From Eledone cirrhosa (lineage: Eukaryota), in assembly GCA_964016885.1 (NCBI GenBank), contig CAXHJY010001439.1, positions 248,001-312,000 of the forward strand: DNA of 64,000 nucleotides, in the 5' to 3' direction. The notes under the pieces are model-generated. The model was given only the letters and a program-made list of their open reading frames with translations. It had not been told where the DNA came from and made no database searches. Position numbers and translations under genes: made by a program. Positions 45,245 to 60,580 of the stretch are shown here, in pieces; position 1 is the first letter of the stretch, and each line of letters opens with the position of its first letter.

Positions 45245-46515
45245 AACCACATCACTACCACCACAACCACTACTACCACCAGAACTACCACTGACACCAC
45301 TACCACTGACATCACTACCACCACCACCACTACTACCACCAGAACTACCACTGACACCACAACAAACAACCACCCAAAGATCTCACCAAAAACTCCACCA
45401 AATACCAGTTACACTACCACTGACACCACTACCACCACTACCACTGACACCACTACCACTGATATCACTACCACCACCACCACTACTACCACCAGAACTA
45501 CCACTGACACCACAACAAACAACCACCCTAAGATCTCACCAAAAACTCCACCAAATACCAGTTACACTACCACTGACACCACTACCACCACTACCACTGA
45601 CACCACTACCACCACTACCACTGACATCACTACTATCACCACCACCACTTCCACTGGTACCACTACCATCACTAATACCACCACCACAACAAACAACCTC
45701 GTACTTCCACTACCACCACCATCACCAACACTAACACCTAACCAGGAACCATCGACAAGACCTTATCCGCTTACTGAGTTTGTGTGAAACTCGTCAGACT
45801 GTTACCACTATCACCACCATCACCACCATCACCACCACCATCACCACCACCACCATCACTGCCACTGGCACCACTACCACCACCATCACCACCATCACTG
45901 CCACTGGCACCACTACCACCACCATCACCACCACCACCAATTCCACTGGCACCACTACCACCACCATCACTACCACCACCATCACCCCCACCACCATCAC
46001 CACCAGCACCACTGCCACTGGCACCACTACCACCACCACTGCCACTACCACCACCATCAACACCACTGCCACTGGCACCACCATCACCATCACCACCACC
46101 ATCACTGCCACTGGCACCGCTACCACCACCATCACCACCACCACCACTGCCACTGGCACCACTACCACCACCATCACCACCACCACCCCTGCCACTGGCA
46201 CCACAACCACCACCATCACCACCACCACCACCACCACTGCCACTGGCACTGGCACCACTACCACCACCATCACCACCACCACTGCCACTGGCACCACTAC
46301 CACCACCATCACTACCACTACCAGCACCAGCACCACCACTTCCACTGGCACCACTACTACCACCATCACCATCACCACCACTTCCACTGGCACCACTACC
46401 ACCACCATCACTACCACCACCATCACCACCACCACCACCATCACTACCAACACCATCACCACCACCACCACTTCCACTAGCACCACTACCACCACCATCA
46501 CTACCACCACCATCA
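45245..46515. repeat. (ACC)n-derived minisatellites: 153-bp tandem duplication, and ACCACTGCCACTGGCACC units
   Basis: GATCTCACCAAAAACTCC at 45379 and 45532. 'actgccactggcaccactacc' is repeated many times in 45858-46400. Confidence 0.85.
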
Positions 46516-46519
46516 CCAA

Positions 46520-46795
46520 CACTAACACCTAACCAGGAACCATCGACAAGATCCCAGACCTTATCCGCTTACTGAGTTTGTGTGAAACTCGTCAGAACTG
46601 ACCGAGGAAACAATGTTTCCATTGGCCTTTCCAATTACAGATGCTATTACTATCTACGGGTCGCAGCACCTGGCAGAAAGAGGAACATGAAATAAAGCGA
46701 CTTGCTCAAGGACAAAACCTATCACCCCGGCTTGGCCATCGAACTCACAACCCCACCATTGTGAATCCAATTCTCTAACCACTGAGCAACAGGCC
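46520..46795 (-). mobile_element. tRNA-derived CORE-like SINE, near full length
   Basis: Minus strand: TGCTCAGTGGTTAGAG (A box), GAGTTCGATGG (B box), CORE-like 'gtccttgagcaagtcgctttatttca', then a body shared with 41392-41472. The 3' boundary is approximate. Confidence 0.75.
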
Positions 46796-47054
46796 AACAT
46801 TTTATTCTTCGCCCCTAATCAACACGTTAAACGAGATTTGGTGCGGATCCAAGTTTTCTATTGTTAAAAATTCAAGATGTCGCTCTCTTCTCTATCGATG
46901 TCCGGAAGCTATATGTTGTATATGACATGCAGTGACACCACTAGGGAAATTAATGTATCATTAGTTTCTGGGAAGGAATGCACTGAGTTCACCTTTAAAG
47001 GGAGGAAACTAATGAAACAACAAACAATAAAGACCTATAAACTGCATTCACACT

Positions 47055-47109
47055 ATGTATGTATGTATGATATATATATATCTATACATAATATGTGTAT
47101 ATATATATA

Positions 47110-47172
<63 letters not shown>

Positions 47173-47188
47173 ATATAACATATGTATA

Positions 47189-47226
<38 letters not shown>

Positions 47227-47240
47227 GTGTATATATATAA

Positions 47241-47276
<36 letters not shown>

Positions 47277-47324
47277 ATGTATATATATATATATATATAT
47301 ATAATGTATATATATATATATATA

Positions 47325-47377
<53 letters not shown>

Positions 47378-47450
47378 GTGTATATATATTGTATATGTGT
47401 ATATATATTATATAATGTATATATATATATAATATGTATATATATATATA

Positions 47451-47510
<60 letters not shown>
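47055..47510. repeat. Degenerate (TA)n tract
   Basis: Direct read. Confidence 0.92.
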
Positions 47511-47512
<2 letters not shown>

Positions 47513-47910
47513 CCTAGTCCGTTTAGTAATATTGTTGTGGTCGTGTTTTCGTTGGCAATCGTCTGTTTACGACAGTACAGCGCGGCTCTACTTTATTTAA
47601 CTGAGATAAAACTTATATGAGCATGAACAGTAGATCATTACGCATCTTTTGGCTTAAAAATCTAGAAATTTGGTCCAGCGGGAAAAAGTTTATAATCAAA
47701 GTTTGCTGATAAATCTTGTGTTCAAGTGAGTGAGTAGTAAGCGTGACGCTAGGGGAGGTAATTACGAGGTAATTACAAGGGGAGGTAATCTAATATATTT
47801 CAAATTGTATTTTTAACTAAATTCATTTATTATAGTCTAATATTTTAAAAATAGGTGAGTGCTCCACGATGATGACCCATGTCCCCGCCATGTGGAGGGG
47901 ATGCTTAGGA

Positions 47911-47970
47911 GCCATCCAGATATCATGTGACCATTTTTGGTTCGCGGTCTCCACATGATATCTGGATGGC
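47911..47970. other. Perfect 19-bp inverted repeat (60-nt hairpin)
   Basis: GCCATCCAGATATCATGTG (47911-47929) and CACATGATATCTGGATGGC (47952-47970), with a 22-nt spacer. Confidence 0.85.
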
Positions 47971-48461
47971 CCTTTATACTAATTAGTCATTTATCTGCAT
48001 AAACATTATACCAGATCATTCTGATTATTGGCTTGAAATCTTTTACACAATTAGTATGAGCAACTAAGAGGTCATCAATAGAAATAGAATTACTTTTTGA
48101 AGTTTTCATGCACAGCATTTTTGGGGATTTTAAATAAAAGTTAATATCATAATTCTTATTTTGTATACCCACATTGCAGATACAGAGAAACATGACAATC
48201 CTATATAAAGGTCGTAGACAGCAGTATCAGTTGTTATCCGTAACACCATTGAAATGCACAAGTTTCACCAATTCACTATTATGCACTAATCATCTCAAAT
48301 GCATTCATGATTTACTAGCTTTGTCATTAAGCCAGTTGCCTCAACTAGATTGCAATTATACTCAAAAGAACTTTAAAATGTCAATCACTTGTCAGTAATT
48401 CACTATGATCTTTTAATTATTAGATAGTTGTTGCTTGCATTGCCTTAAAAAATAGTAGACG

Positions 48462-49482
48462 AGATAGAAAAATGCGTACAGCAAAAAAAAGTAATATTGT
48501 TGGAATATAAACCTTTAAAAATACAGGACAAGAAACTAAAATAAAACTTTAAAAGAATAGGACAAGAAACTAAGATAAAACTTTAAAGAATTGGACAAGA
48601 AATAAAAAATTTTACAATAATATTAGTGACAAAATTTTTTTATTCGTTTCCTGTGCTATGCCCCAGTATCTTCTTGATTAGTGCATAATAATTGTCATGC
48701 TCTCATTGTGCGTTGCCCCTGAGCGGTTGGTTCTGGTTGGGGTTGGTTGGCTGAGCAGTTCTGCTCCGTCAGAATGACCAGTGCAAGAGGAATTGGCCGA
48801 TGCAGCTGCAGGTCTCCTCCAAGAATGCACTTCTGGTCCCGCAACACCAGACGAAGATGGAGAAGACGACCGGGACAAGATGTCGACTCTGACCACCGAC
48901 TAAGGCACCTCCCTCAACCACCGGTCCTCCCTCCCTCTGTCCCGTCATCCCTCCAGTCCTCCTGCTCCCCCTTCCTGTACCAGAAAGCTGTGGCACGCAT
49001 TCATCTGGACTGCCGGACTTGAACTCAAGGACAAGATGCAAGGAGAAGATGGACGGGTTGGTCAAGATCAAGGATGAGCGGGACGACAAGACCGTCCGCT
49101 GCTGCTCAAGATCTGTGCTCATGGGCCCATGGGTCCATTCACATTATGCATGACACATGAGGCGTGTCGCCGAATGATGAAATAGGGGTATGGTTATGGC
49201 CCAATTGGTGTTCAAACCAGGATCAAATGATCCCCCCGGTCTGACGACGACGTCTGAATGTGGAACCCAGAGCCTATGAATGTGGAACTCGATTTTTTAC
49301 CAATAAAAATTTTGCCACTAATATTATTGTAAAATTTTTTATTTCTTGTCCAATTCTTTAAAGTTTTATCTTAGTTTCTTGTCCTATTCTTTTAAAGTTT
49401 TATTTTAGTTTCTTGTCCTGTATTTTTAAAGGTTTATATTCCAACAATATTACTTTTTTTTGCTGTACGCATTTTTCTATCT
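48462..49482. mobile_element. Non-autonomous long-TIR DNA element (178-bp TIRs, ~665-bp GC-rich interior)
   Basis: 48462-48639 is the reverse complement of 49305-49482, with one mismatch that I could see. Each TIR has three GGACAAGAAA sub-repeats at ~33-35 bp spacing. No clear TSD. Confidence 0.85.
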
Positions 49483-49489
49483 GGTATAA

Positions 49490-49526
49490 CATATGTATAT
49501 ATATATATATATATATATAATATGTG

Positions 49527-49580
<54 letters not shown>

Positions 49581-49583
49581 ATA

Positions 49584-49628
<45 letters not shown>

Positions 49629-49664
49629 TGTATATATATAATATATATATATATAATATATGTG

Positions 49665-49709
<45 letters not shown>

Positions 49710-49797
49710 GTGTATATATATAATATATATATATAATACATGTGTATATATATAATATATATAATATACATATATATAATATATGTGTATATATATA

Positions 49798-49828
<31 letters not shown>

Positions 49829-49893
49829 ATACATGTGTATATATATAATATATATAATATACATATATATAATATATGTGTATATATATAATA

Positions 49894-49955
<62 letters not shown>

Positions 49956-49957
49956 TA
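49490..49957. repeat. Degenerate (TA)n tract with internal sub-repeats
   Basis: Direct read. Confidence 0.92.
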
Positions 49958-50117
49958 CTTCGTCTTTAATTGTTGATCTGAAAACGTGTGTTGAAACATA
50001 TATTGTTATACTTTGGGAAGGTCATTCTGCGAACAAAAACACACATCTGCTGAATTTCACTTCAATTTATTACAAATTTCCAGTTGGTTGGTCTAGTATC
50101 CGGATGGTTGTTATTTT

Positions 50118-50172
50118 GTTTATTGTTGAAGCTCTTTCGTCGCACATTCTATGACGTCCTCAGTGACTAATT
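50118..50172 (-). ncRNA. Degenerate type I hammerhead-like motif (Penelope pseudo-LTR-like)
   Basis: Minus strand: CTGAGGA-C-GTC(ATAGAATGTGC)GAC-GAAA-GAGCT-TC-AACAATAAA. Core boxes and stem II are present, but stem I pairs poorly. Confidence 0.45.
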
Positions 50173-50384
50173 TATCACACTGTGTCTCTCTGAGAGGCGA
50201 GTGTATTTTCATTGGCAACATGAACATCCCAAAACATAACCCCCCCCACACCCACACACACCCACACACACACACACACACATATTGTTTTACTTTGGCA
50301 GGTTTATGTTGCCAATAAAAATATACGTATCTCCCTCAAATAAGGCTCAGTATATATATAAATATTATACACATTAATATACAA

Positions 50385-51178
50385 TCATCGACACAACGAC
50401 CACAACCACGACCATTACCACCACTACCACCACCAACAACAACAACAACTACAACAACAAAAACAACAGCAACAACACCACCATCATTATCAACACAATT
50501 ACCAAAATCAATATCACCCTTACACCACCACCACCACCACCACCACCACCACCACCGCCAACACCAACACAACCACCACCACCACCACCACCACTACCAT
50601 CACCACCAGCACCAGCACCACCACCAACACTACCATCACTACCATCACCACCACCACCACTACCATCACCACCACCACCACCACCACCTCCATCAACAAC
50701 AACTACAACAACAAAAACAACAGCAACAACACCACCATCATCACCAACACAATCACCAAAATCAATATCACCCTTACAACCACCACCACCACCACCACCA
50801 CCGCCAACACCAACACAACCATCACCACCACCACCACCACCACCACTACCATCACCACCAGCACCACCACCACCACCACCTCCACCAGCACCACCACCAC
50901 CACCACCACCTACTCCACCACCAAAAACACCACCACCACCACCACTACCATCACCACCAGTACCACCACCACCACCACTACCATCACCACCAGCACCACC
51001 ACCACCTCCACCACCACCAGCACCACCACCACTACCATCACCAGCACCACCACCACCACCTCCACCACCACTACCACCACCACCACCACCACCGCTACCA
51101 CCACCAGCACCACTACCACCACCACCACCACTACCACCACCAGCACCACTACCACCACCACCACCACCACTACCACAT
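50385..51178. repeat. (ACC)n/(ACA)n array with a 254-bp tandem duplication
   Basis: ATCAATATCACCCTTACA at 50507 and 50761. Confidence 0.88.
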
Positions 51179-51296
51179 AACTGTTACTGTGATGTTACAC
51201 TCAATTTCGCAACGTGTTTTTTTAACATTTACGATTCACAGTTTTTAAAAGCAAAACGTTGTTAGTTTGCGGAGTTAATTGAGAGAACGGGAACAT

Positions 51297-51522
51297 GGCA
51301 ACAATGGAAGCAATAATAGCAGCAACAACAACAGCAATACCAATAGCAGTTACAACAACAGCAACAACAACATCAACCACAGCAATAGCAACAACAACAA
51401 CAACAACGACAATAGCAACAACAACAGCCACAGCAATAGCAACAGCAGCAACAACAACTAATGCAGCAATCAATAGTAGCAAACAACTACAACAATACCA
51501 ACAGCAGCAACATCAACAACCG
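51297..51522. repeat. (ACA/GCA)n low complexity
   Basis: Direct read. Confidence 0.85.
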
Positions 51523-51553
51523 CATACCGTAGCTGTATGTCATATATCAAATC

Positions 51554-51628
51554 ATATATTTTGTCTGATGAGGACGTACTGAAAAAAACAACACAGTACC
51601 TTTGAAATATATATATAATAAAGTATAT
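51554..51628 (+). ncRNA. Type I hammerhead ribozyme-like motif 1
   Basis: Stem I ATATATTTTGT(51554-64)/ATAAAGTATAT(51618-28). CTGATGA 51565-71. Stem II GTACTG/CAGTAC on a weak GGAC/CTTT base. GAAA 51604-07. Palindromic stem III TATATATA. UH = TA 51616-17. Confidence 0.65.
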
Positions 51629-51743
51629 ATTTTGATTATGAGAATATTTTTGATTTGTTAATATTTTGAGATATCCGGGAGCTTCCAACAGAAATGGTCG
51701 CATTCTCTAAGGGTATGTCAATATTTATTTATAAAGCTGCTCT

Positions 51744-51819
51744 ATATTATATTTTATCTGATGAAAGCACACCATAATTTAACTTGATGTCCTTGAAATA
51801 TGTATAATGAAATAAATAT
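51744..51819 (+). ncRNA. Type I hammerhead ribozyme-like motif 2
   Basis: Stem I ATTTTAT(51751-57)/ATGAAAT(51807-13), extendable via ATATT/AATAT. CTGATGA 51758-64. Stem II AAGCACACCA/TGATGTCCTT (8 of 10 paired). GAAA 51795-98. Stem III TATGTA. UH = TA 51805-06. Confidence 0.65.
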
Positions 51820-51845
51820 GGTTTTATAAATATAGTTTCCATTTG

Positions 51846-51953
51846 TTCCCGCCGAGGTTGACTTTGCCTTTCATCCTTACGGGGTCGATAAAATAAAGTA
51901 CCAGTAATGCACTGTTTAATTGCTGGCCTTGTGCCTAACGTAGAAACAAAAAA
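51846..51953 (+). mobile_element. 5'-truncated tRNA-derived SINE
   Basis: 'cccgccgaggttgactttgcctttcatccttacggggtcgataaaataaagtaccagtaatgcactg...ggccttgtgcctaacgtagaaac' matches the 52185-52365 copy. Confidence 0.85.
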
Positions 51954-52184
51954 ATATATCGTATTTTTACTCCAACAATTTGTTGAGTGCTTTATATCAG
52001 TTATAAAAATATTTGCTTGTTGTATCCCAACAATTTAAATAGAATTTCTACATATATATATACTTAGGGTAAACATGGATGCAATTCAATTCAAGCACTC
52101 AACGTACTTATTCCACATAGGAGTGACGGAGTAAATATCGAATAAGGAAAAGCGAAGTAGTTTCAGATGTCTTTTAATAATAAT

Positions 52185-52365
52185 TGTTTCTACTTTAGGC
52201 ACAAGGCCAGCACATACCCAGTTCATTACTGGTACTTTATTTTATCGACCCCGTAAGGATGAAAGGCAAAGTCAACCTCGGTGGGATTTGAACTCAGATC
52301 GTAAAGGGACGTAACTATGCTGGAAAGCATGGCGTCCGACCCTCTACCGATACTGCCAATCCACC
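52185..52365 (-). mobile_element. Full-length tRNA-derived SINE with target-site duplication
   Basis: Minus strand: TGGCAGTATCGG (A box), GAGTTCAAATCC (B box), 'ggggtcgataaaataaagtaccagt' body. TSD GTCTTTTAATAATAAT at 52169-52184 and 52368-52383. Confidence 0.88.
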
Positions 52366-52630
52366 AAGTCTTTTAATAATAATGCTGTGATATATATTTC
52401 AATGGCGACAGTGGTCACACTGTTCCGTGCGCCAGTGTCACCACATCGTCAGACAGCTTTTTACATAATAAGGTTATGTTTCCGAGGCAATCCAAATCCA
52501 TGTCGATTCAATTTGGATTGCCTCGGAAACATAACCTTATTATGTAAAAAGCTGTCTGACGATGTCGCGACACTGACACACGGAACAGTGTGACCACTGT
52601 CGCCATTGAAATATATATCACAGCATTATT

Positions 52631-52715
52631 ATCCTTACGGGGTCGATAAAATAAAGTACCAGTAATGCACTGGGTAATTGCTGGCCTTGTGCCTAAAGTA
52701 GAAACAATTATTATT
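52631..52715 (+). mobile_element. 5'-truncated copy of the same SINE
   Basis: 'atccttacggggtcgataaaataaagtacc...gtagaaacaattattatt', flanked by ATTATTAT on both sides. Confidence 0.85.
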
Positions 52716-52753
52716 AAAAGACTTGAACATCTGAAACTACTTCGCTTTTCCTT

Positions 52754-52858
<105 letters not shown>

Positions 52859-53579
52859 TCCGTTTCATAAGTCTATATAACCGGAAAAACAGTTTATATT
52901 TAATTTGTTTTCGAGCTTATAGCTATTTGTATAATATCTCCCTTAATTCTTTATTGAATGTTTTTCTAATCTTAGAGTAAATATTTTACAATAATTTTCT
53001 AATTGCGTTCGTCGTAAATATAATATTATAGTTTTCTAATTGTGTTGCTAAATATAATCTTTCTATATCGACTTTATAATAGTATCTTCTAAATGCAATC
53101 ACTATTTCCACCCTACCCAAATCATTTTCTATTCTAGTCTTACTAATTCAATTAACTTCCAGTTGAGAATAATACTATGACGGTAATATATTAGTAAAAC
53201 AGCTACTGTATTGAGACATATTAACCCCACAACCTTCTTTTTAGCATTTAACTCGTTTTTATTTATTTACAAGTATTAATCGAATGCGACTATAATACAC
53301 TATCTTACCCTTTTCTTTCATTTGTGTGTTTTGTGTTATTTAGTTCATTAATTCCAAAGTATTTATAAGTCTGTCGTTCTTCCACTTCTTCTCTCTCTAT
53401 CTCGTTATCTAATATGATATTACTGGCTTTTATTATTAATTCACATCTCTTAAAGGTAACGTTGGTATTTTATTTATCAACTGAACCGATTTGCATTGCT
53501 AAACCGAACCGGTTTTCATTCTACTTTCTCTAGAATACACGTGTTTTTTTTTTCATCTGCATTACATTATACTTTAGGT

Positions 53580-53923
53580 CAGAGCTTGTCAAAGTTGGCT
53601 CTACTTCCCCCCGGGGGCGTTGAGTAGGACCAAGGGGACGCTGGAGCCTAACCGACAGTGGGGGAACTGTAGAGAGAGAGATGATATAATAGTATATTAA
53701 ATATCAAATGATATATATTATATATAAATATAGTAAAATAAAAAATATATATTTATTTAAGTAATACCCTCAGCGCCAGTATATACACAGTATATATTAT
53801 ATTATTTATTATATATAAATTAACGATTATATTTAGTATACATTATTTACAATTTGTATGGGGCGCTGAGGGTATTACTTGGCAGTGAGTGGGGCGGTGG
53901 CCAAACAAGTTTGAGAAACTCTG
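53580..53923. mobile_element. hAT (Charlie/Buster-like) MITE
   Basis: TIRs CAGAGCTTGTCAAAGTTG / CAAGTTTGAGAAACTCTG. 8-bp TSD CTTTAGGT (53572-79) / CTTTAGGA (53924-31), with the central TA typical of Buster-type hATs. Confidence 0.8.
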
Positions 53924-54019
53924 CTTTAGGATACCCATACAAAGGAGATCCTGCATCTTATTTTATGAAGGGGAGACCCCAGCAGAAGTTTTAAGTGGAT
54001 AGTTAACTGTATATAAGTC

Positions 54020-54293
54020 TAAACTCTGTCTCGAACACGGCGGCTCATCAGGCAGGTGTTTATCTCGGTTTCCGTAGCATGAAGCAACTGAGAGTACAAG
54101 ACTTCCCACTGGACAAGACGCCAGCCCATCACTGGGTTAAACCTGCAACTGTTGCTTGTACTCCTATTCAACTGAATAGACTGGAGCAACGTGAAATGAA
54201 GTCTTTTGCTGAAGAACACAAAATAAAACCCAGTCCTGGAACAAAGCCACGACATTATGATCGTAAGTCAAACACCGTTACCACGCGACCACA
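54020..54293 (-). mobile_element. Diverged tRNA-derived SINE with CORE-like and V-domain-like segments
   Basis: Minus strand: 'gtggtcgcgtggtaacggtg' head, CORE-like 'gtgttcttcagcaaaagacttcatttcacgttgctccagtc', then 'aacccagtgatgggctggcgtcttgtccag...gcttcatgctacggaaaccgagataa'. Confidence 0.7.
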
Positions 54294-54389
54294 GAAAGCA
54301 TATTTTTGATACCGTATCGATTCTGTTTGCAAGTCCACCGCACTAACACGTGTAAAAATATTGATTTATGAACGAGAAGGGCATAGATC

Positions 54390-54505
54390 ATTAAATCAAT
54401 GCTACAAGGAATAAAGGTAAAGTGGACTTTGGTGGGATTTGAACTCAGAATGTAAAGAACCAAAACAAACCTCACTTTGGCACTTTATCTGACGCACTAC
54501 CGATT
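54390..54505 (-). mobile_element. Old SINE head fragment (family of 52185-52365)
   Basis: 'aaggaataaaggtaaagtggactttggtgggatttgaactcagaatgtaaag' parallels 52255-52306. Confidence 0.7.
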
Positions 54506-54727
54506 ATCTATCTATCTATCTATCTTGATAGAGTAAGACACGCTTCGCATCGGCTCCGCTATTCCATCGGGATTTACCCTTACTATTGTAAGTACCGGAT
54601 ACATTTTTTAGTGCAACACATTTGGAACACTAACCCCTGTTATTTAGGGAAACATTTTTGCATTTACCCCCTTTTTAGGGAGTAAAATAAATATCTATTT
54701 TTGCCGAAAAATTTCTTTCTTGGCAGC

Positions 54728-56563
54728 ATGGCGGAAAAGATGGCAGACATGTCTGCCATTAGCTCTGCCACGCCCCCCAAGTCTGAAGAACAAAAAATAA
54801 TTACAACAAAATTAGACATTGAAACAAACAAACAAAATGAAAAAACAAATGTTAAGGAAAATGAGCAAACAGAAAACAAACAAACAGAAAATAATACAAA
54901 TAACGACAGGGCAACTTTCGCCCAGAAAACAAAACAATCCATTACATACACACCAATTGACCTAACTGCCGCCAGAGAAAAACTGGCCGAAGCAAAGAAA
55001 CACATTGTTTTGGGGGAGAACGGAATGTTTTCCATTAACTCCCCCCCAGAATTCAAGAAAGCCAGAGCAGAAAACACAGTTCTATACAGAACTATACTGA
55101 ACCAGACAAGAAAGCCAGCACAGCCCAGCCAAATGGAAATAGAGTTAGTCCTAAAAGATTATATGAAGAATATTCTCTTCATACGAAAGGACCGACTCTA
55201 TGGCAGCATTTCGGTCCTAACAAGAGACAAAGAAACGGCGGAGAAGCTTTCCCTAAGCCCACTCTCGTCGACAACATATAGCTTCTATCCCTCCTACATG
55301 GGTAGAAGAACACAGAGAGTAAAAGTAAAAGCAATGCTGCCCACAATGGACTTCTGGTGGGCTATTGCTGGCTTCATTGATATGGGCGAAGACACTATGC
55401 TGTCAATGGGGAAGGCAACTGGAGATGCGTTCCTGGGAATGGGCCTCGACATACTAGTCCAAATGAGGCCCGAAAGAATAGCACAAATCCCGGATCGCAT
55501 CTGGCTGGATGACCTTACCCCAATAGACATAATTGTAGAGGGGAGAAGACCAGCATGCTATTTATACATGGAAAGGGGACACGTTAAGGCTAACTGCCCG
55601 AAACGTATCCCCCAAAAAGGATTATTGCCCACACCCACCACAAACAGTACACCAGCACCACCTACCTCCAAAAATACACTAATACCACACACAGCAAACA
55701 AAATACAGACACCACCAACCACAAACACAACACAAACATCACCACCACCAGCACCAAACACAAGCACGACACAAAAATCACCACCACCAACCACAACACA
55801 AACATCACCACCACCATCAACAACCACAAGCACGACACAAACATTACCACCACCACCACCACAAAACCCATTCCAAACAAATAATAAAAAAAACAGTAAC
55901 AAATCTACCCCTCCCGCAAAAAAAAAACAACCACACAACACGTCCCTCCCACCTAGCGCTGAAGAGTTTCCCCCAACTTCTGAAGAAGAAGGAGGAGAAG
56001 CCTTCAGACAAGTTAAAAGAAAAAAAAGAAAACACACACCCAGCACACCACAAATAACCCACACACAAACACCAACTCCAATCAAAAACACCCCACCCTC
56101 AACAAACAAAAATAAATCTGCGCCTCCCCTCTCCGAAACATTGACAGCATCACAAAAAAAGACGTTGCAATACACATATATAAATAAAGAAAACAAAAAA
56201 CTGGTTAAATTAATAAACAATAACCCTATGGTGCAGACCGAAGGGCCAAACTTTATCTCAACAGAGAACTTCACCCATTTAAAAATGATAAAGGTCCCTC
56301 TGGACCTTTATCGTTCCTTAAAAGAACAATTTAGACGGGACGTGAGCCCCCCCTGTTTAAAACCGTTGAATCGCGTCCTCTTGAAAGATTTCCCCATAAC
56401 CGCCCCTCTCCCTGACACAACTCCAAATACCCCAACCCCACCACACACGTGTACCCCCACACCACCACAAAACATCCCTCCACCCAACACACCTGATGCC
56501 ATGGAAATTACGCAACCCGGAGAGGTAAGTGCTTTTCTTTCTTCACTTTCAACACCAAAATAG
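54728..56563 (+). CDS. LINE ORF1 (gag-like nucleic-acid-binding protein)
   Basis: Open frame from ATG 54728. Degenerate knuckle 'EGRRPACYLYMERGHVKANCP' (Cx2[C>Y]x4Hx4C), then a Pro/Thr-rich linker and basic 'VKRKKRK'. Confidence 0.85.
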   Translation: MAEKMADMSAISSATPPKSEEQKIITTKLDIETNKQNEKTNVKENEQTENKQTENNTNNDRATFAQKTKQSITYTPIDLTAAREKLAEAKKHIVLGENGMFSINSPPEFKKARAENTVLYRTILNQTRKPAQPSQMEIELVLKDYMKNILFIRKDRLYGSISVLTRDKETAEKLSLSPLSSTTYSFYPSYMGRRTQRVKVKAMLPTMDFWWAIAGFIDMGEDTMLSMGKATGDAFLGMGLDILVQMRPERIAQIPDRIWLDDLTPIDIIVEGRRPACYLYMERGHVKANCPKRIPQKGLLPTPTTNSTPAPPTSKNTLIPHTANKIQTPPTTNTTQTSPPPAPNTSTTQKSPPPTTTQTSPPPSTTTSTTQTLPPPPPQNPFQTNNKKNSNKSTPPAKKKQPHNTSLPPSAEEFPPTSEEEGGEAFRQVKRKKRKHTPSTPQITHTQTPTPIKNTPPSTNKNKSAPPLSETLTASQKKTLQYTYINKENKKLVKLINNNPMVQTEGPNFISTENFTHLKMIKVPLDLYRSLKEQFRRDVSPPCLKPLNRVLLKDFPITAPLPDTTPNTPTPPHTCTPTPPQNIPPPNTPDAMEITQPGEVSAFLSSLSTPK

Positions 56564-59500
56564 ATCAATTGAGAGTTGGCTGTTTGAACGCGCGTGGCCT
56601 GGGCTCAGCTTGGAAGCAAGCAAAGCTTCTAAGTGACCTCAGGTCACAAAGTATAGATGTGATGGTTGTTTGCGAGAGTCGGATCAGCAGCGTGAGACAG
56701 CTGGCGCCCGCCTTCGATGACTTTGAGATGCACGCATCTCTCTGTCAACCCGGAGGCGGGGGGGGGGGGGAGTTGCCGTACTGCTGGATAAACGTCTGAC
56801 TCTCGACGTACAGATTGTTCACTCGGACCCGGGGGGTCGATTACTGGTGCTGGACGTCGCTGGCGGTGAAGGCGGGGCTTTCAGACTGGTCGGTCTTTAT
56901 GCTCCCTTCGGGGCGGAAAGAGCCGACTTCTTCCAGCGTCTGGAGACTTTTCTAGGAACGTCGCGTTCCCTGCTTTTAGTGGGGGACTGGAATGGAATCC
57001 TAGATGCGCGTTGGGACTATGCAGGGGCATGTCCCGATAGAGGGGGGTGTAATAGCCTCAAGGGGTTACTCGATCGATTCGACCTGGTCGATAGATTTCG
57101 ACTAGATTGTCCAACTGCGCCAACCTGGACCTGGGCAAACCGCAGTGGACAATCTAGATCGTACCTAGATAGGTTTTTGGTTAGGAGTAAGGATAGGGAC
57201 GTATTTAGTTGTCCAGAACTGATCATGGTTGGCTATTCAGATCACAAATTAGTGACCTGCGTGGTCAACCTTGATAGAACGCATAGACAGGGTCCCGGTT
57301 ACTGGAAGATGAACTTGTCCTTACCGACAAAGAAAGATTACAGAAACCGGATTAGTAGCTTAGTTAAGATGCGGTTGACGGGAGCGATCGTCAACAGTAG
57401 GTGGTGGATATCTCTAAAGAGAGAGATTAGAGTAAGTTCGATAGGTTACAGTAAGGAACTAGCGGCGAATAGAAATAGGAGGGAAAGGGAGTTAACAGAT
57501 AAACTAGAAGAGGCGATTAGGAGCGGAGACGTAGCCAGAGTGTTAGCGACGAGAACGGCATTGAGCCAGTTCTTTGACGCGAAGCACGAAGGCTGCGTTG
57601 TCCGAAGTAAAATACGTGCTTTAGGAAACGAGGGGACCAAAGCTGTTAGCTGGGCCCGCGTGACAGAAGCCAAGAGTGGGATTAAATCCACCATTCGGTC
57701 TTTGCGAGACCAGGATGGACGGGTGATCCTTGAACCTGAGCGAATGTGCGAGACCTTTCAAAGGCACTTTGCTCGACTGTTCGGAGGTGGCGGGGGGCCG
57801 GATGGGGATGTGGACTTCGGTCCATACCTCGACGGTCTACCGCGTCTTTCGAGCGGCGAAGCGGAGTGCTGCGAAGGGCCAATCACAGCCACTGAAATCG
57901 GGGAAGCGCTCAGCCAATGCAGCAGACGCAAATCCCCGGGTCTCGATGGTCTACCATACGAACTTTATTTAGCTATGCCGGTCTTGTTCTCCGAACTCCT
58001 CGAGGCTGTCTATTGCAACTGGCAACAGAACGGGAGAATTCCCTGTTCTGTGACCAAGGGCGTGGTCACGCTAGTGAGGAAGGACGAGAGCAAGGGGGAC
58101 GACTTAAGTAACTTTAGGCCCATAACTCTGCTGAATGCAGAGTTACAGATTTTGGCCAAGGTGTTGGCGAAGAGGTTGGCGCTTGTGGTGGGTGGTTTGG
58201 TGGGAGACGCGCAGACATGCGCTATCCCGTCCAGGTCCATTCACGACAACCTCCACCTCATGCGATACATCATAGAGAGGGTTGGCTACGAACCCGGCTT
58301 TGGTGGGGCCCTGATCAACTTGGATCAATCTAAGGCGTTCGATAGGGTCGACCATGGTTACCTGGATGCGGTGCTAGCGGCGGCGGGCTTCGGACCCGTT
58401 TTCAGGGGCTGGATTTCTGCCATGCACAGTGGCAACATCTACTCTAGGATTAAAGTAAACGGCTACCTCTCGGAGCCGTTTCAAATCACCCGATCCATCA
58501 GACAGGGGTGCCCCCTCTCCTCCCTTCTGTACGTATTGACTCTCGAGCCACTGCTGCGGAAGTTGGAGTTGCTGCGGGGCATACCCCTGGAACCGGGATT
58601 GCACAAAGCGGTCTCGGCCTATGCCGACGACGTAACAGTAATGGTGGCAGACGCCTCGGAAATCGGGGCGATCGCCACCCTACTGGAGGAATACGAAAGG
58701 CTGACGGGGGCTAAGCTGAACCAGGACAAGTCAGTCGGTTTGCAACTCGGAACGTGGAGGGGCAAACCGATGCCGTTAGACGGTGTCGTCGGGCGGTGGA
58801 CGGAGGGCCCGGTGAAGCTGCTCGGGGTCTGGTTCGGACCGGACCTCCAGGTGGAGAAGAATTGGGGCGAGGTGACGAGCAGGGTGTTTGCGCTGACCCA
58901 GAAGTGGGCCAAGTGCAAACTATCACTGAAAGGTCGGGCGGAGGTGACGAACGCTTACATAGCGTCCGTCATCTACTACCGCCTGACCGTCGTGCCTTGC
59001 CCCAAGGAAAAGCTCACCATCATGGAACGCATGCTCTTCCAGTTCCTCTGGAAGAAGCGGCCTCCCATGGTGAGGAGATCCATCTGCTGCCAGCACCCTT
59101 CGAAAGGAGGGCTGGGTATGCCGTGGCTGTTGATGCGTAGGCACGCATTGAGGCTACGGCATCTACAGGTATTCCTCAACGGTCAGCCGGTGTGGGCCCC
59201 GTTTGTGAGGCGAGCCTTCCCACAGCTCGTCTCGCTCACCGAACTGCAATCCTGAGTGAAGCAAAGACCGAGAAAACTGGGCAACTGGCACACCGAGTGT
59301 GCCCAGGCGCTCACGGCTATTTGGCAAGCGGACCCGACTGTCAGTGGAGAATCCACCTCGACATTCTATAGAGGGTTGGTGGCTAGCAGGGGCGACGACA
59401 CCCTTGGAGAGTCGCTAGGCATGGAGGAAGACGAACTGGCTAGCCTGTTCGGTAGAACTTTCGGCCCGGGACCCATGGACAACTTCCAGAGGTCCCTAGC

Positions 59501-60002
59501 CTGGCAGTGTTACCGGGGGGCTCTGCCCGTTCGAGAAAAGCTCTACAGACACGGGCGCCCGGGCAGGGATCCCGCGAAAAAGATCTGTCCCAGATGCGTG
59601 CGCGACGAGGAAACCGTTGCGCATGCACTGGTACACTGCCCGGGCGTTGCCGATCTGTGGGGCTACGTCGAACGACTGCTGTCGCGTGTGGCGCCGATTC
59701 GATTAACCGCCGAGTCTGTGGTGAACATCAAGCCGCCTCCTCCCTTCAGAAATGAAGCAGAGGCGGTCTTTCTGTGCGTAATAGCCATGATGAAAGAGGT
59801 TGTGTGGTGGACGCGCCTGAAAGGTCTGAGGTCGGGTGACTTTCTCTCCGGCCATCACCTGGTTTACTTCTTCCGATACCACTTCGGAAGAAGAATCAGG
59901 ATGGAGAGAGAAGTGCTTGGTCCCAGACAGTTTTATGAAAGGTGGGTGAAAGAAGCGAGAATGGCCCGTGTAAATGGGCCTTCTCTCTACATTGTTCTGT
60001 AG
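56560..60002 (+). pseudogene. LINE ORF2 (AP endonuclease + reverse transcriptase + C-terminal zinc finger), disrupted
   Basis: EN motifs LNARGL, VCE, GVAVLL, LYAP, GDWN, SYLDRF, SDH. RT motifs SPGLDGLP, FRPITLLN, LDQSKAFDRV, RQGCPLS, YADD. C-terminal CPRC..ETVAHALVHCP. Frameshift in the G-run ~56758-56771 and in-frame TGA at 59253-55. Confidence 0.92.
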
Positions 60003-60240
60003 GTGAAGAAGTGAAGAGGAAAGGGGGAGCGCCTCCTCTCTGGGCTTCCCCCGCGAAAAGAATTGCACACTTTTCGGGGGTATGTGCAATCCCCAACACG
60101 CCCCCTCCCTTTTGAGGACTTTTATTGTTATATTATTATTGTTATTCCTTTTTTCTTTACTCGATTTATGTAAACTCCCCACTGTGTAAATGTCCCCTTC
60201 TTTTGTGCCCTCGTGGCAAATAAATAGAAATTTATCTATG

Positions 60241-60283
<43 letters not shown>

Positions 60284-60291
60284 TATATATA

Positions 60292-60580
60292 CCAGCAAAT
60301 TTTATAAAAGGTGGGTGAATGTGGCAAAGATAGTCCGAGTGGTTGGGCCTTCTCTCTATATAAGCCTGTTGGTGCTCCTGGAGATGAGGGTTGTACATTT
60401 TTTCGGGGTGTGTACAACCCCTGTGTCACGCCTCCCCCTATTGGGGATTTCAATTGTTATTTTTTATTTTATTAATAGTTATTAATAGTTATTTTATTAA
60501 TTTTATTTTCATATACCTGTATGTAAACTCCCCATTTGTATTTGTCCCCTTCTTTTGTGCCCTTGTGGCTAATAAAGAAA
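60292..60580 (+). mobile_element. Diverged 5'-truncated 3' fragment of a related LINE, ending in (TATC)n
   Basis: Encodes KFYKRWVNVAKIVRVVGPSLYI versus QFYERWVKEARMARVNGPSLYI in the full copy. Shares 'tgtaaactcccca..tgtccccttcttttgtgccct.gtggc.aataaa'. Confidence 0.88.

Follow-up and report, generated by a model that had tools for sequence, protein, structure and literature searches.

Two neighbouring hammerhead motifs in Eledone cirrhosa DNA belong to separate high-copy repeat families, probably ends of Penelope-like elements

Two type I hammerhead ribozyme motifs lie on the same strand of an Eledone cirrhosa contig with predicted cuts 189 nt apart, which raises the question of whether the pair forms one small self-cleaving unit or owes its arrangement to something else. 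The preliminary description, made from the letters of the window (the whole 64,000-nt stretch analysed here, which is microsatellite-rich animal DNA), proposed a retrozyme-like family releasing a monomer of about 189 nt and also named Penelope-like elements (PLEs). The two motifs are located as follows.

51554..51628, + strand: HH1, type I hammerhead motif, predicted cut after A51617 (AUA)
51744..51819, + strand: HH2, type I hammerhead motif, predicted cut after A51806 (AUA)

Both motifs show the type I order, with C3UGANGA9, G12AAA15.1, U16.1 and H17 arranged around three stems and stem I open. Re-derivation of the coordinates confirmed what had been described, namely complete element order on one strand, intact cores and cuts after 51617 and 51806. 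In HH1, stem I (51554-51564/51618-51628) pairs at 11 of 11 positions, two of them G.U, the core consists of CUGAUGA at 51565-51571 and GAAA at 51604-51607, and stem II (51572-51581/51594-51603) pairs at 9 of 10. HH2 has a stem I of 13 pairs with one bulge (51744-51757/51807-51819), a core of CUGAUGA at 51758-51764 and GAAA at 51795-51798, and a stem II (51765-51774/51785-51794) with 8 of 10 positions paired. The stem III segments are self-complementary, as had been noted; the A15.1-U16.1 segment of HH1 comprises 10 nt, and that of HH2 comprises 8 nt with two G.U pairs. The usual, though not strict, G10.1-C11.1 pair at the base of stem II is absent, also as described, and is replaced by G.U in HH1, A-U in HH2 and U.U in two further motifs, HH3 and HH4, presented below. 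The AUA triplet at both cuts is listed as a natural, slower cleavage triplet in PMC1636495.

The preliminary description cautioned that AT-rich DNA pairs easily and proposed a descriptor search against dinucleotide-shuffled controls, together with an Rfam Hammerhead_1 scan, as checks. Across 20,000 dinucleotide shuffles of 51520-51850, searched on both strands, a loose descriptor found one match in 4 and two matches in 0, while a strict descriptor, whose limits were fixed after the motifs were known, found none. The background of the loose descriptor in the non-microsatellite part of the window is 0.007 matches per shuffled 12.5 kb. An outside control, in which a relaxed core pattern was matched to public contigs, returned 8 viral and 82 metagenome loci; a stem I of at least 4 pairs together with a stem II of at least 7/10 occurs in 0 of these 90 matches, against 4 of 4 window motifs, and the strict hammerhead pattern has 0 matches in the metagenome contigs. 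The Rfam scan came back empty, with no hammerhead at gathering score across the 64-kb window. At E<=10, 51300-52100 again gave no hammerhead, only weak unrelated matches, and 52340-52680 behaved likewise, the miRNA matches at this threshold being the inverted repeat described below. The motifs share topology and core with Hammerhead_1, and their long stem II and long loop 2 would place them outside the model.

Unconstrained, the two motifs fold only weakly (z -1.95 and +0.43), and their hammerhead conformation lies 5.3 (HH1) and 4.5 (HH2) kcal/mol above the minimum at 37 C, as expected where stem III forms only in a dimer under the established model (PMC4209133). Chance pairing in AT-rich DNA would also leave folding energies weak and Rfam without a match, but it does not account for two descriptor matches in none of the shuffles, for the failure of every outside pattern match to carry both stems, or for family variation that leaves the core untouched and keeps its pairs. 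These three lines rule chance out for practical purposes, reducing it to a negligible probability.

Whether the two motifs are repeats of one another is a separate matter. By position the term tandem is justified, as both lie on the same strand 189 nt apart; as repeats it fails, the two units not being copies of each other and TRF reporting no array at a 189-nt period. Aligned with each other, the 189-nt segments that end at cut 1 and at cut 2 score above shuffles (7/3000), and they do so through the motif itself. Stem II of A against B scores at shuffle level (1548 of 3000 as good), the tails after stem I show no significant similarity (474/3000), and the upstream parts have one 8-nt word in common (38/3000), which is not significant in the window copies. 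BLAST of the two modules against the window found no further copies.

The family structure emerges from public sequencing runs; the analysis covered 4 of 23 listed runs, aligned to 51495-51846 at 80% likeness. X1 and X4 are contigs of organism A, X5 contigs of organism B and X21 RAD-seq reads of organism A, and the aligned pieces number 5559 X1 contigs, 649 X4 contigs, 46 X5 contigs and 28,765 X21 reads. X1 is possibly the source sample, and a record filter was active, so a hole alone proves nothing. Details refer to a listed subset of 24 pieces, 40 variant rows and 15 of 23 joints, with loose ends shown as 30 letters each. The alignment divides the locus into the following parts.

51526..51669, + strand: module A, a high-copy hammerhead repeat and 5'-truncated 3' end, probably a PLE pseudo-LTR, delimited by run alignment
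51669..51672, + strand: A/B junction, at single-copy depth only
51672..51846, + strand: module B, a second, more abundant hammerhead family, also a 5'-truncated 3' end, delimited by run alignment
51618..51806, + strand: cut-to-cut interval of 189 nt, a chimera of the A tail (52 nt), the junction and the truncated B body

Pieces of module A start at 51526-51560 and end at 51638-51669; their loose ends run before 51526/51535 into other upstream sequence of their own and behind 51669 into TA repeats (37 X1 contigs). Pieces of module B start at or after 51672, before which 18 X1 and 3 X4 contigs come from different upstream sequence, and behind 51844 a total of 84 X1 contigs and 3221 X21 reads cross some 15 AT-rich letters before reaching TA repeats. 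In the module B copy at the locus the last 15 nt or so are absent where a SINE-like piece starts. Because the loose ends lead to other sequence on both sides, the stretch splits into A and B. Where the tails enter TA repeats, agreement is low, at 0.65 (X1) and 0.57 (X21) behind 51844 and 0.57-0.66 across the tails in X1 and X21, as expected of dispersed insertions.

Summed X1 depth stands at 121 in the flank, 0.8-2.3e5 over the HH1 motif (about 2e5 at its core) and about 1e6 at the HH2 core, so that core depth exceeds the 5-27 of single listed X1 contigs by four to five orders, summed depth being no copy number. At 51671, within the junction, X1 depth is 29.4, of which 19.3 carries the family-B letter and 10.1, a value within the range of single listed X1 contigs, is left with the letter of the window; X4 and X5 have depth 0 there, and 3 of 3 X21 reads have the family-B letter. 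No piece among the 24 listed spans 51669-51672. A and B are distinct dispersed families whose ends lie about 55 nt past their respective cuts; both are 5'-truncated here, and the 189-nt interval is a chimera local to this locus, not a family unit. Homologous copies, whose lack the preliminary description named as a refutation, exist for each motif, both of which sit in high-copy families in the run alignment. Four opposite-strand joints fall inside module B in X1. Other joints go back from 51766-51768 to 51585-51609 with 7-29 letters between, letters that by eye complete one stem II; circles or arrays were rejected as their source for this reason, and the joints are read as single hammerheads of intermediate subfamilies.

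Variation within the families spares the ribozyme core. Among the 40 listed variant rows, the 26 core positions are represented only by the free position 7 of HH1 (27% in X21). The window's G.U pairs at 51563, 51623, 51572/51603, 51573/51602 and 51809 read A-U or G-C in the family, with A-U found at 51563 in 594 of 1001 X21 reads, at 51623 in 748 of 1215 X21 reads and at 51809 in 43% of X1 depth. Whole alternative stem II helices are present among the family joints and variants. Stems are kept by compensatory change across homologues in this per-position table, column linkage lying outside its reach, and the variation fits a selected hammerhead fold. The earlier remark that stem II changes sequence while keeping its pairing is borne out by the replacement of G.U with A-U or G-C, by the alternative helices and by a restored pair at 51787. 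One listed change opposes stem I as drawn, T51624C, present in 26% of X21 reads and 43% of X1 depth; its partner may have changed too, in a row beyond the 40 listed.

The base of stem II follows family rather than individual lines in part. At HH1 this pair has C11.1 in 481 of 996 X21 reads, while about 23% have A at 51572 and a similar share have A at 51573, so family A carries both G-C and A-U forms at 10.1/11.1, their linkage being outside the table. In family B, A10.1-U11.1 is the majority form, since all six T>C and three A>G changes of X1 are placed at other positions. An A-U pair at this place is published for PLE hammerheads of Marsupenaeus and D. willistoni (PMC4209133), and U.U is reported in PMC3088659 and for axolotl HHR_Amex2 (PMC7229834). 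The suggestion that the missing G10.1-C11.1 pair marks decayed copies is consequently upheld in one respect and not in the other: the absence itself is partly a family trait, and decay is visible elsewhere as private changes. A51787 is private to the window's HH2 and breaks one stem II pair, the family having G in 99.8% of X1 depth, and near-fixed family differences occur at 51534, 51652, 51707 and 51736. The HH1 stem III segment is one TA longer than in most family reads; a 2-nt gap is placed at 51607 in 468 of 1011 X21 reads, and single gaps at 51605 and 51608 in 336-351 reads. Folded within its surroundings, HH1 is drawn by the extra TA towards a competing hairpin, and the mean pair probability of its stem I is 0.01. 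The window copies of HH1 and HH2 show private decay.

A third family lies about 600 bases from modules A and B in the form of an inverted pair, and short repeats, which we take to be SINEs, accompany the hammerhead modules. The corresponding features are these.

52376..52497, - strand: left arm of the inverted pair with HH3 (core 52452-52446, GAAA 52400-52397, cut after 52389, AUC)
52511..52632, + strand: right arm of the inverted pair with HH4 (core 52556-52562, GAAA 52608-52611, cut after 52619, AUC)
51847..51949, + strand: truncated SINE-like repeat interrupting the module B tail

The arms stand head-to-head, 13 nt apart, each 122 nt long and identical at 118 of 122 positions (97%). HH3 and HH4 have CUGACGA, U.U at the base of stem II and an 8-nt AU palindrome; their tails without the SINE-like insert measure about 53 nt (HH3) and 61 nt (HH4), and the HH4 tail then enters (TA)n at 52758. 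The AUC triplet at both cuts is described in PMC1636495 as essentially absent from natural hammerheads.

The SINE-like piece at 51847-51949 matches 52184-52286 on the minus strand and 52631-52707 on the plus strand at 93-96%, and the short repeats at 51847-51949, 52184-52364 and 52631-52707 are 93-97% alike. Both tails of the inverted pair hold a SINE-like insert at the same site, with a 16-nt duplication at 52169-52184 and 52368-52383. All three pieces sit in tails of hammerhead modules, and the piece at 51847-51949 has a weak match to U2 snRNA (13 bits), probably by chance.

A feature common to the families concerns the fourth pair of stem II, which is a C.C mismatch in HH1 (51575/51600), HH2 (51768/51791) and HH4 (52566/52604) and G-C in HH3. 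The four C.C positions of HH1 and HH2 do not occur among the 40 listed variant rows, and a C>G change of at least 10% is seen nowhere in X1, X4 or X21 and at one place in X5; with no such change in X1, X4 and X21 and the positions absent from the listed variants, the mismatch is the family state. Among the alternative stem II helices, as judged by eye, three carry C.C at this pair and two carry A.C or U.C. In published alignments, likewise by eye, C.C at the fourth pair appears in 0 of 56 rows of Fig. S3 of PMC4209133, where two rows have other mismatches, and in 0 of 34 rows of File S2 of PMC8557442. A literature search found no paper on a C-C mismatch in hammerhead stem II, and broader ones gave no clear lead; Lunse et al. 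2017, the largest survey, stands outside this comparison, and the feature may already be known.

The reading that best fits these observations, to which we assign a probability of roughly 0.7, makes A and B 5'-truncated 3' ends, or pseudo-LTR pieces, of two diverged PLE families. The Penelope connection drawn in the preliminary description holds as the best reading, on the strength of TA-rich ends, 5' truncation, the inverted pair and a palindromic stem III near the 3' end. As in PLE pseudo-LTRs, the hammerheads here have a palindromic stem III and stand close to the 3' end, with tails of about 55 nt (53/61 nt for HH3/HH4). Dispersed 5'-truncated copies and inverted copies are seen as heterogeneous 3' flanks, opposite-strand joints and the pair at 52376-52632, and the (TA)n targets of the Neptune, Hydra and Naiad clades are seen behind 51669, behind 51844 and behind the HH4 tail at 52758. 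PMC8557442 lists 5' truncation, partial tandems, an inverted 5'-truncated copy and (TA)n targets as PLE traits, PMC4209133 describes PLE hammerheads as mostly single, with some opposite-strand pairs 100-700 bp apart and some small palindromic helices III, and insertion into or beside earlier copies is reported in PMC6765202. PLEs make up 6.83% of the Octopus vulgaris assembly in 190 families (O. vulgaris repeat paper), and Penelope is among the expanded coleoid repeats (PMC8967140). Full-length PLEs carry an upstream ORF with a telomerase-like reverse transcriptase (RT) and a GIY-YIG endonuclease; within the 30 loose letters shown per end, neither is seen upstream of any copy. The one RT ORF scanned within 46500-61000 belongs to a LINE, with an endonuclease of APE type, and upstream of HH2 and HH4 there is one open frame each, of 30-40 codons, without a recognisable endonuclease end.

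The closest published comparison is with the PLE hammerheads of Drosophila, Aedes, shrimp and rotifer in PMC4209133, which resemble the window motifs in core, open stem I, long helix II, palindromic 15.2-16.2 segment and AU-rich flanks, in occurring mostly as single truncated copies, and in forming divergent families per genome and opposite-strand pairs; A10.1-U11.1 and cleavage after A are also among the published examples. Besides the C.C mismatch, they differ in two respects. Typical minimal PLE hammerheads have a stem I of 4-5 bp, whereas HH1 and HH2 have 11-13 bp, and PLE hammerheads carry an unpaired base between A9 and stem II that is absent from the window motifs. Hydra-1_Obim of Octopus bimaculoides (PMC8557442 Files S1, S2) has, as here, a hammerhead near the 3' end, (TA)n targets and an A-U stem II base; by eye its stems I-III and flanks match none of the four window motifs, and its stem II is fully paired. 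Naiad PLEs, which have octopus members and TA targets, were set aside by description, being without canonical hammerheads.

The retrozyme model of the preliminary description, a 189-nt monomer family cleaved as dimers and circularised, shares several features with the locus. Metazoan retrozymes have type I hammerheads in direct orientation, low GC and a probable PLE origin, and their 170-400-nt range includes the present spacing between two intact cores on one strand (PMC7229834); the HH1 and HH2 stem III segments can also pair with each other over 8 bp (-3.9 kcal/mol at 37 C). Retrozymes, however, repeat a single unit in tandem, and their circular monomer is expressed and highly self-paired, whereas the window pair joins two families, and neither a one-unit tandem nor a multi-copy cut-to-cut monomer was found. 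The junction is at single-copy depth, the 15 of 23 joints shown include none from about 51806 back to 51618, the 189-mer (27% GC) has z +0.41 with 128 of 200 shuffles folding as well, the stem III segments are unequal at 10 and 8 nt, and HH1 stem I is scarcely formed in the pair-probability calculation. The claim of a family releasing a monomer of about 189 nt is therefore abandoned as very unlikely, on grounds of the single-copy junction, the A/B chimera and a 189-mer that is not unusually self-paired. A related proposal treats A and B as short non-autonomous families that arose from PLE ends, each with its own unit length and possibly with arrays and circular RNAs elsewhere, and the locus as a chance pairing of two truncated copies. 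It draws on the very high summed depth, the many subfamilies with intact cores and re-paired stems, the published view of animal retrozymes as non-autonomous PLE derivatives, often monomers (bioRxiv 10.64898/2026.07.22.740005), and the presence of both PLEs and retrozymes in mussels (PMC7229834). We hold it to be improbable, though the main rival, because the tails enter low-agreement TA repeats and not their own upstream sequence, as arrays would, and because the goes-back joints are single hammerheads of intermediate subfamilies.

The adjacency of A and B might instead be an assembly chimera of two repeat copies, since 51669-51672 is not spanned, with 31 letters to either side, by any listed piece and X1-X3 hold 0.55-0.58 of the words of 51500-52750; the X1 depth of 10.1 with the window's letter at 51671 and the private substitutions in both modules, as in single old copies, make an artefact of this kind a poor explanation with little probability. 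A device kept by the host to release one defined small RNA out of read-through transcription would agree with two intact cores at the locus, but A51787, the extra TA, the G.U at the HH1 stem II base and spacer changes point to neutral decay, and the junction is without support in X4, X5 and X21, so this idea has only the slimmest of chances. Cleavage of an HH1/HH2 heterodimer is possible in the pairing model, the segments being 2 nt unequal, and 1 of 9 tested true dimers was cleaved in the bioRxiv preprint (10.64898/2026.07.22.740005).

Under the PLE reading, the parent element would carry a hammerhead about 55 nt from its 3' end that cuts a tandem precursor RNA, presumably by dimerising, as in the established model, at its palindromic AU-only stem III. 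Reverse transcription would be primed at TA-rich targets and usually stop early, giving many ends of 140-180 nt. A family-B end would then have joined the TA-rich tail of a family-A end, either by later insertion into the tail or by template switch, which would have left two dissimilar hammerheads at a spacing of 189 nt in this one place, and the SINE-like piece would have cut the module B tail afterwards. We infer the PLE identity, the insertion order and the dimeric cleavage. Double cleavage at the locus, if transcribed, would probably be poor, and its detection in vitro with locus RNA seems rather unlikely.

The surroundings contain several other repeats. A near-complete LINE occupies the following interval.

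54728..60002, + strand: L1/Tx1-type LINE, near-complete, with APE-type endonuclease, RT and zf-RVT domains

Its ORF1 of about 610 aa is without a Pfam match, and ORF2, which holds the three domains, is interrupted twice, by a frameshift at about 56770 and by a stop codon at about 59255; the best named relative of the LINE protein, among 120 of 393 matches, is from the octopod Argonauta hians (68% identity). A short second copy of the LINE 3' end is seen at about 60300-60590. A 40-kb array at 1256-41256 consists of about 4,490 copies of a 9-nt G/T-only unit with 84% matches and extreme strand skew. At 48485-49480, inverted repeats (about 48485-48640 and 49300-49480, each with a 34-nt subrepeat) flank a GC-richer 600-nt core, a structure that resembles a non-autonomous DNA transposon by eye and TRF rows, and at 53640-53885 an AT-rich insert with inverted ends (53765-53780, 53860-53880) is, by eye, a possible MITE or Helitron piece.

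The HH1 and HH2 modules are hammerhead-bearing ends of probable PLEs, an ordinary class. Cephalopod hammerheads have received only brief mention in print, with Hydra-1_Obim in a supplement (PMC8557442) and 235 Rfam hammerhead matches in the giant squid (PMC6962438); a search of the literature on hammerheads in octopus and cephalopods found no study of the present families, and the word ribozyme is absent from the main text and supplement of the O. vulgaris repeat paper. Tentatively, and with more doubt than confidence, octopods may harbour a very abundant, undescribed subtype of type I hammerhead that combines a long stem I with a palindromic stem III of A and U only and retains the C.C mismatch in three or more families whose stem II sequences are otherwise unrelated. 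On that proposal the mismatch would probably serve a selected tertiary or protein contact replacing the loop 1-loop 2 contact, the near-identical stem III palindrome would make heterodimer cleavage between unlike families possible, and chance head-to-tail pairs would be raw material of new retrozymes.

Abundant cephalopod hammerhead families thus escape Rfam, and two tandem hammerheads are insufficient to call a retrozyme. Pairs of hammerheads from unlike families, as at this locus, would offer a direct test of heterodimer cleavage, and the retained C.C mismatch gives a cheap and specific way to probe the tuning of dimer-type PLE hammerheads.
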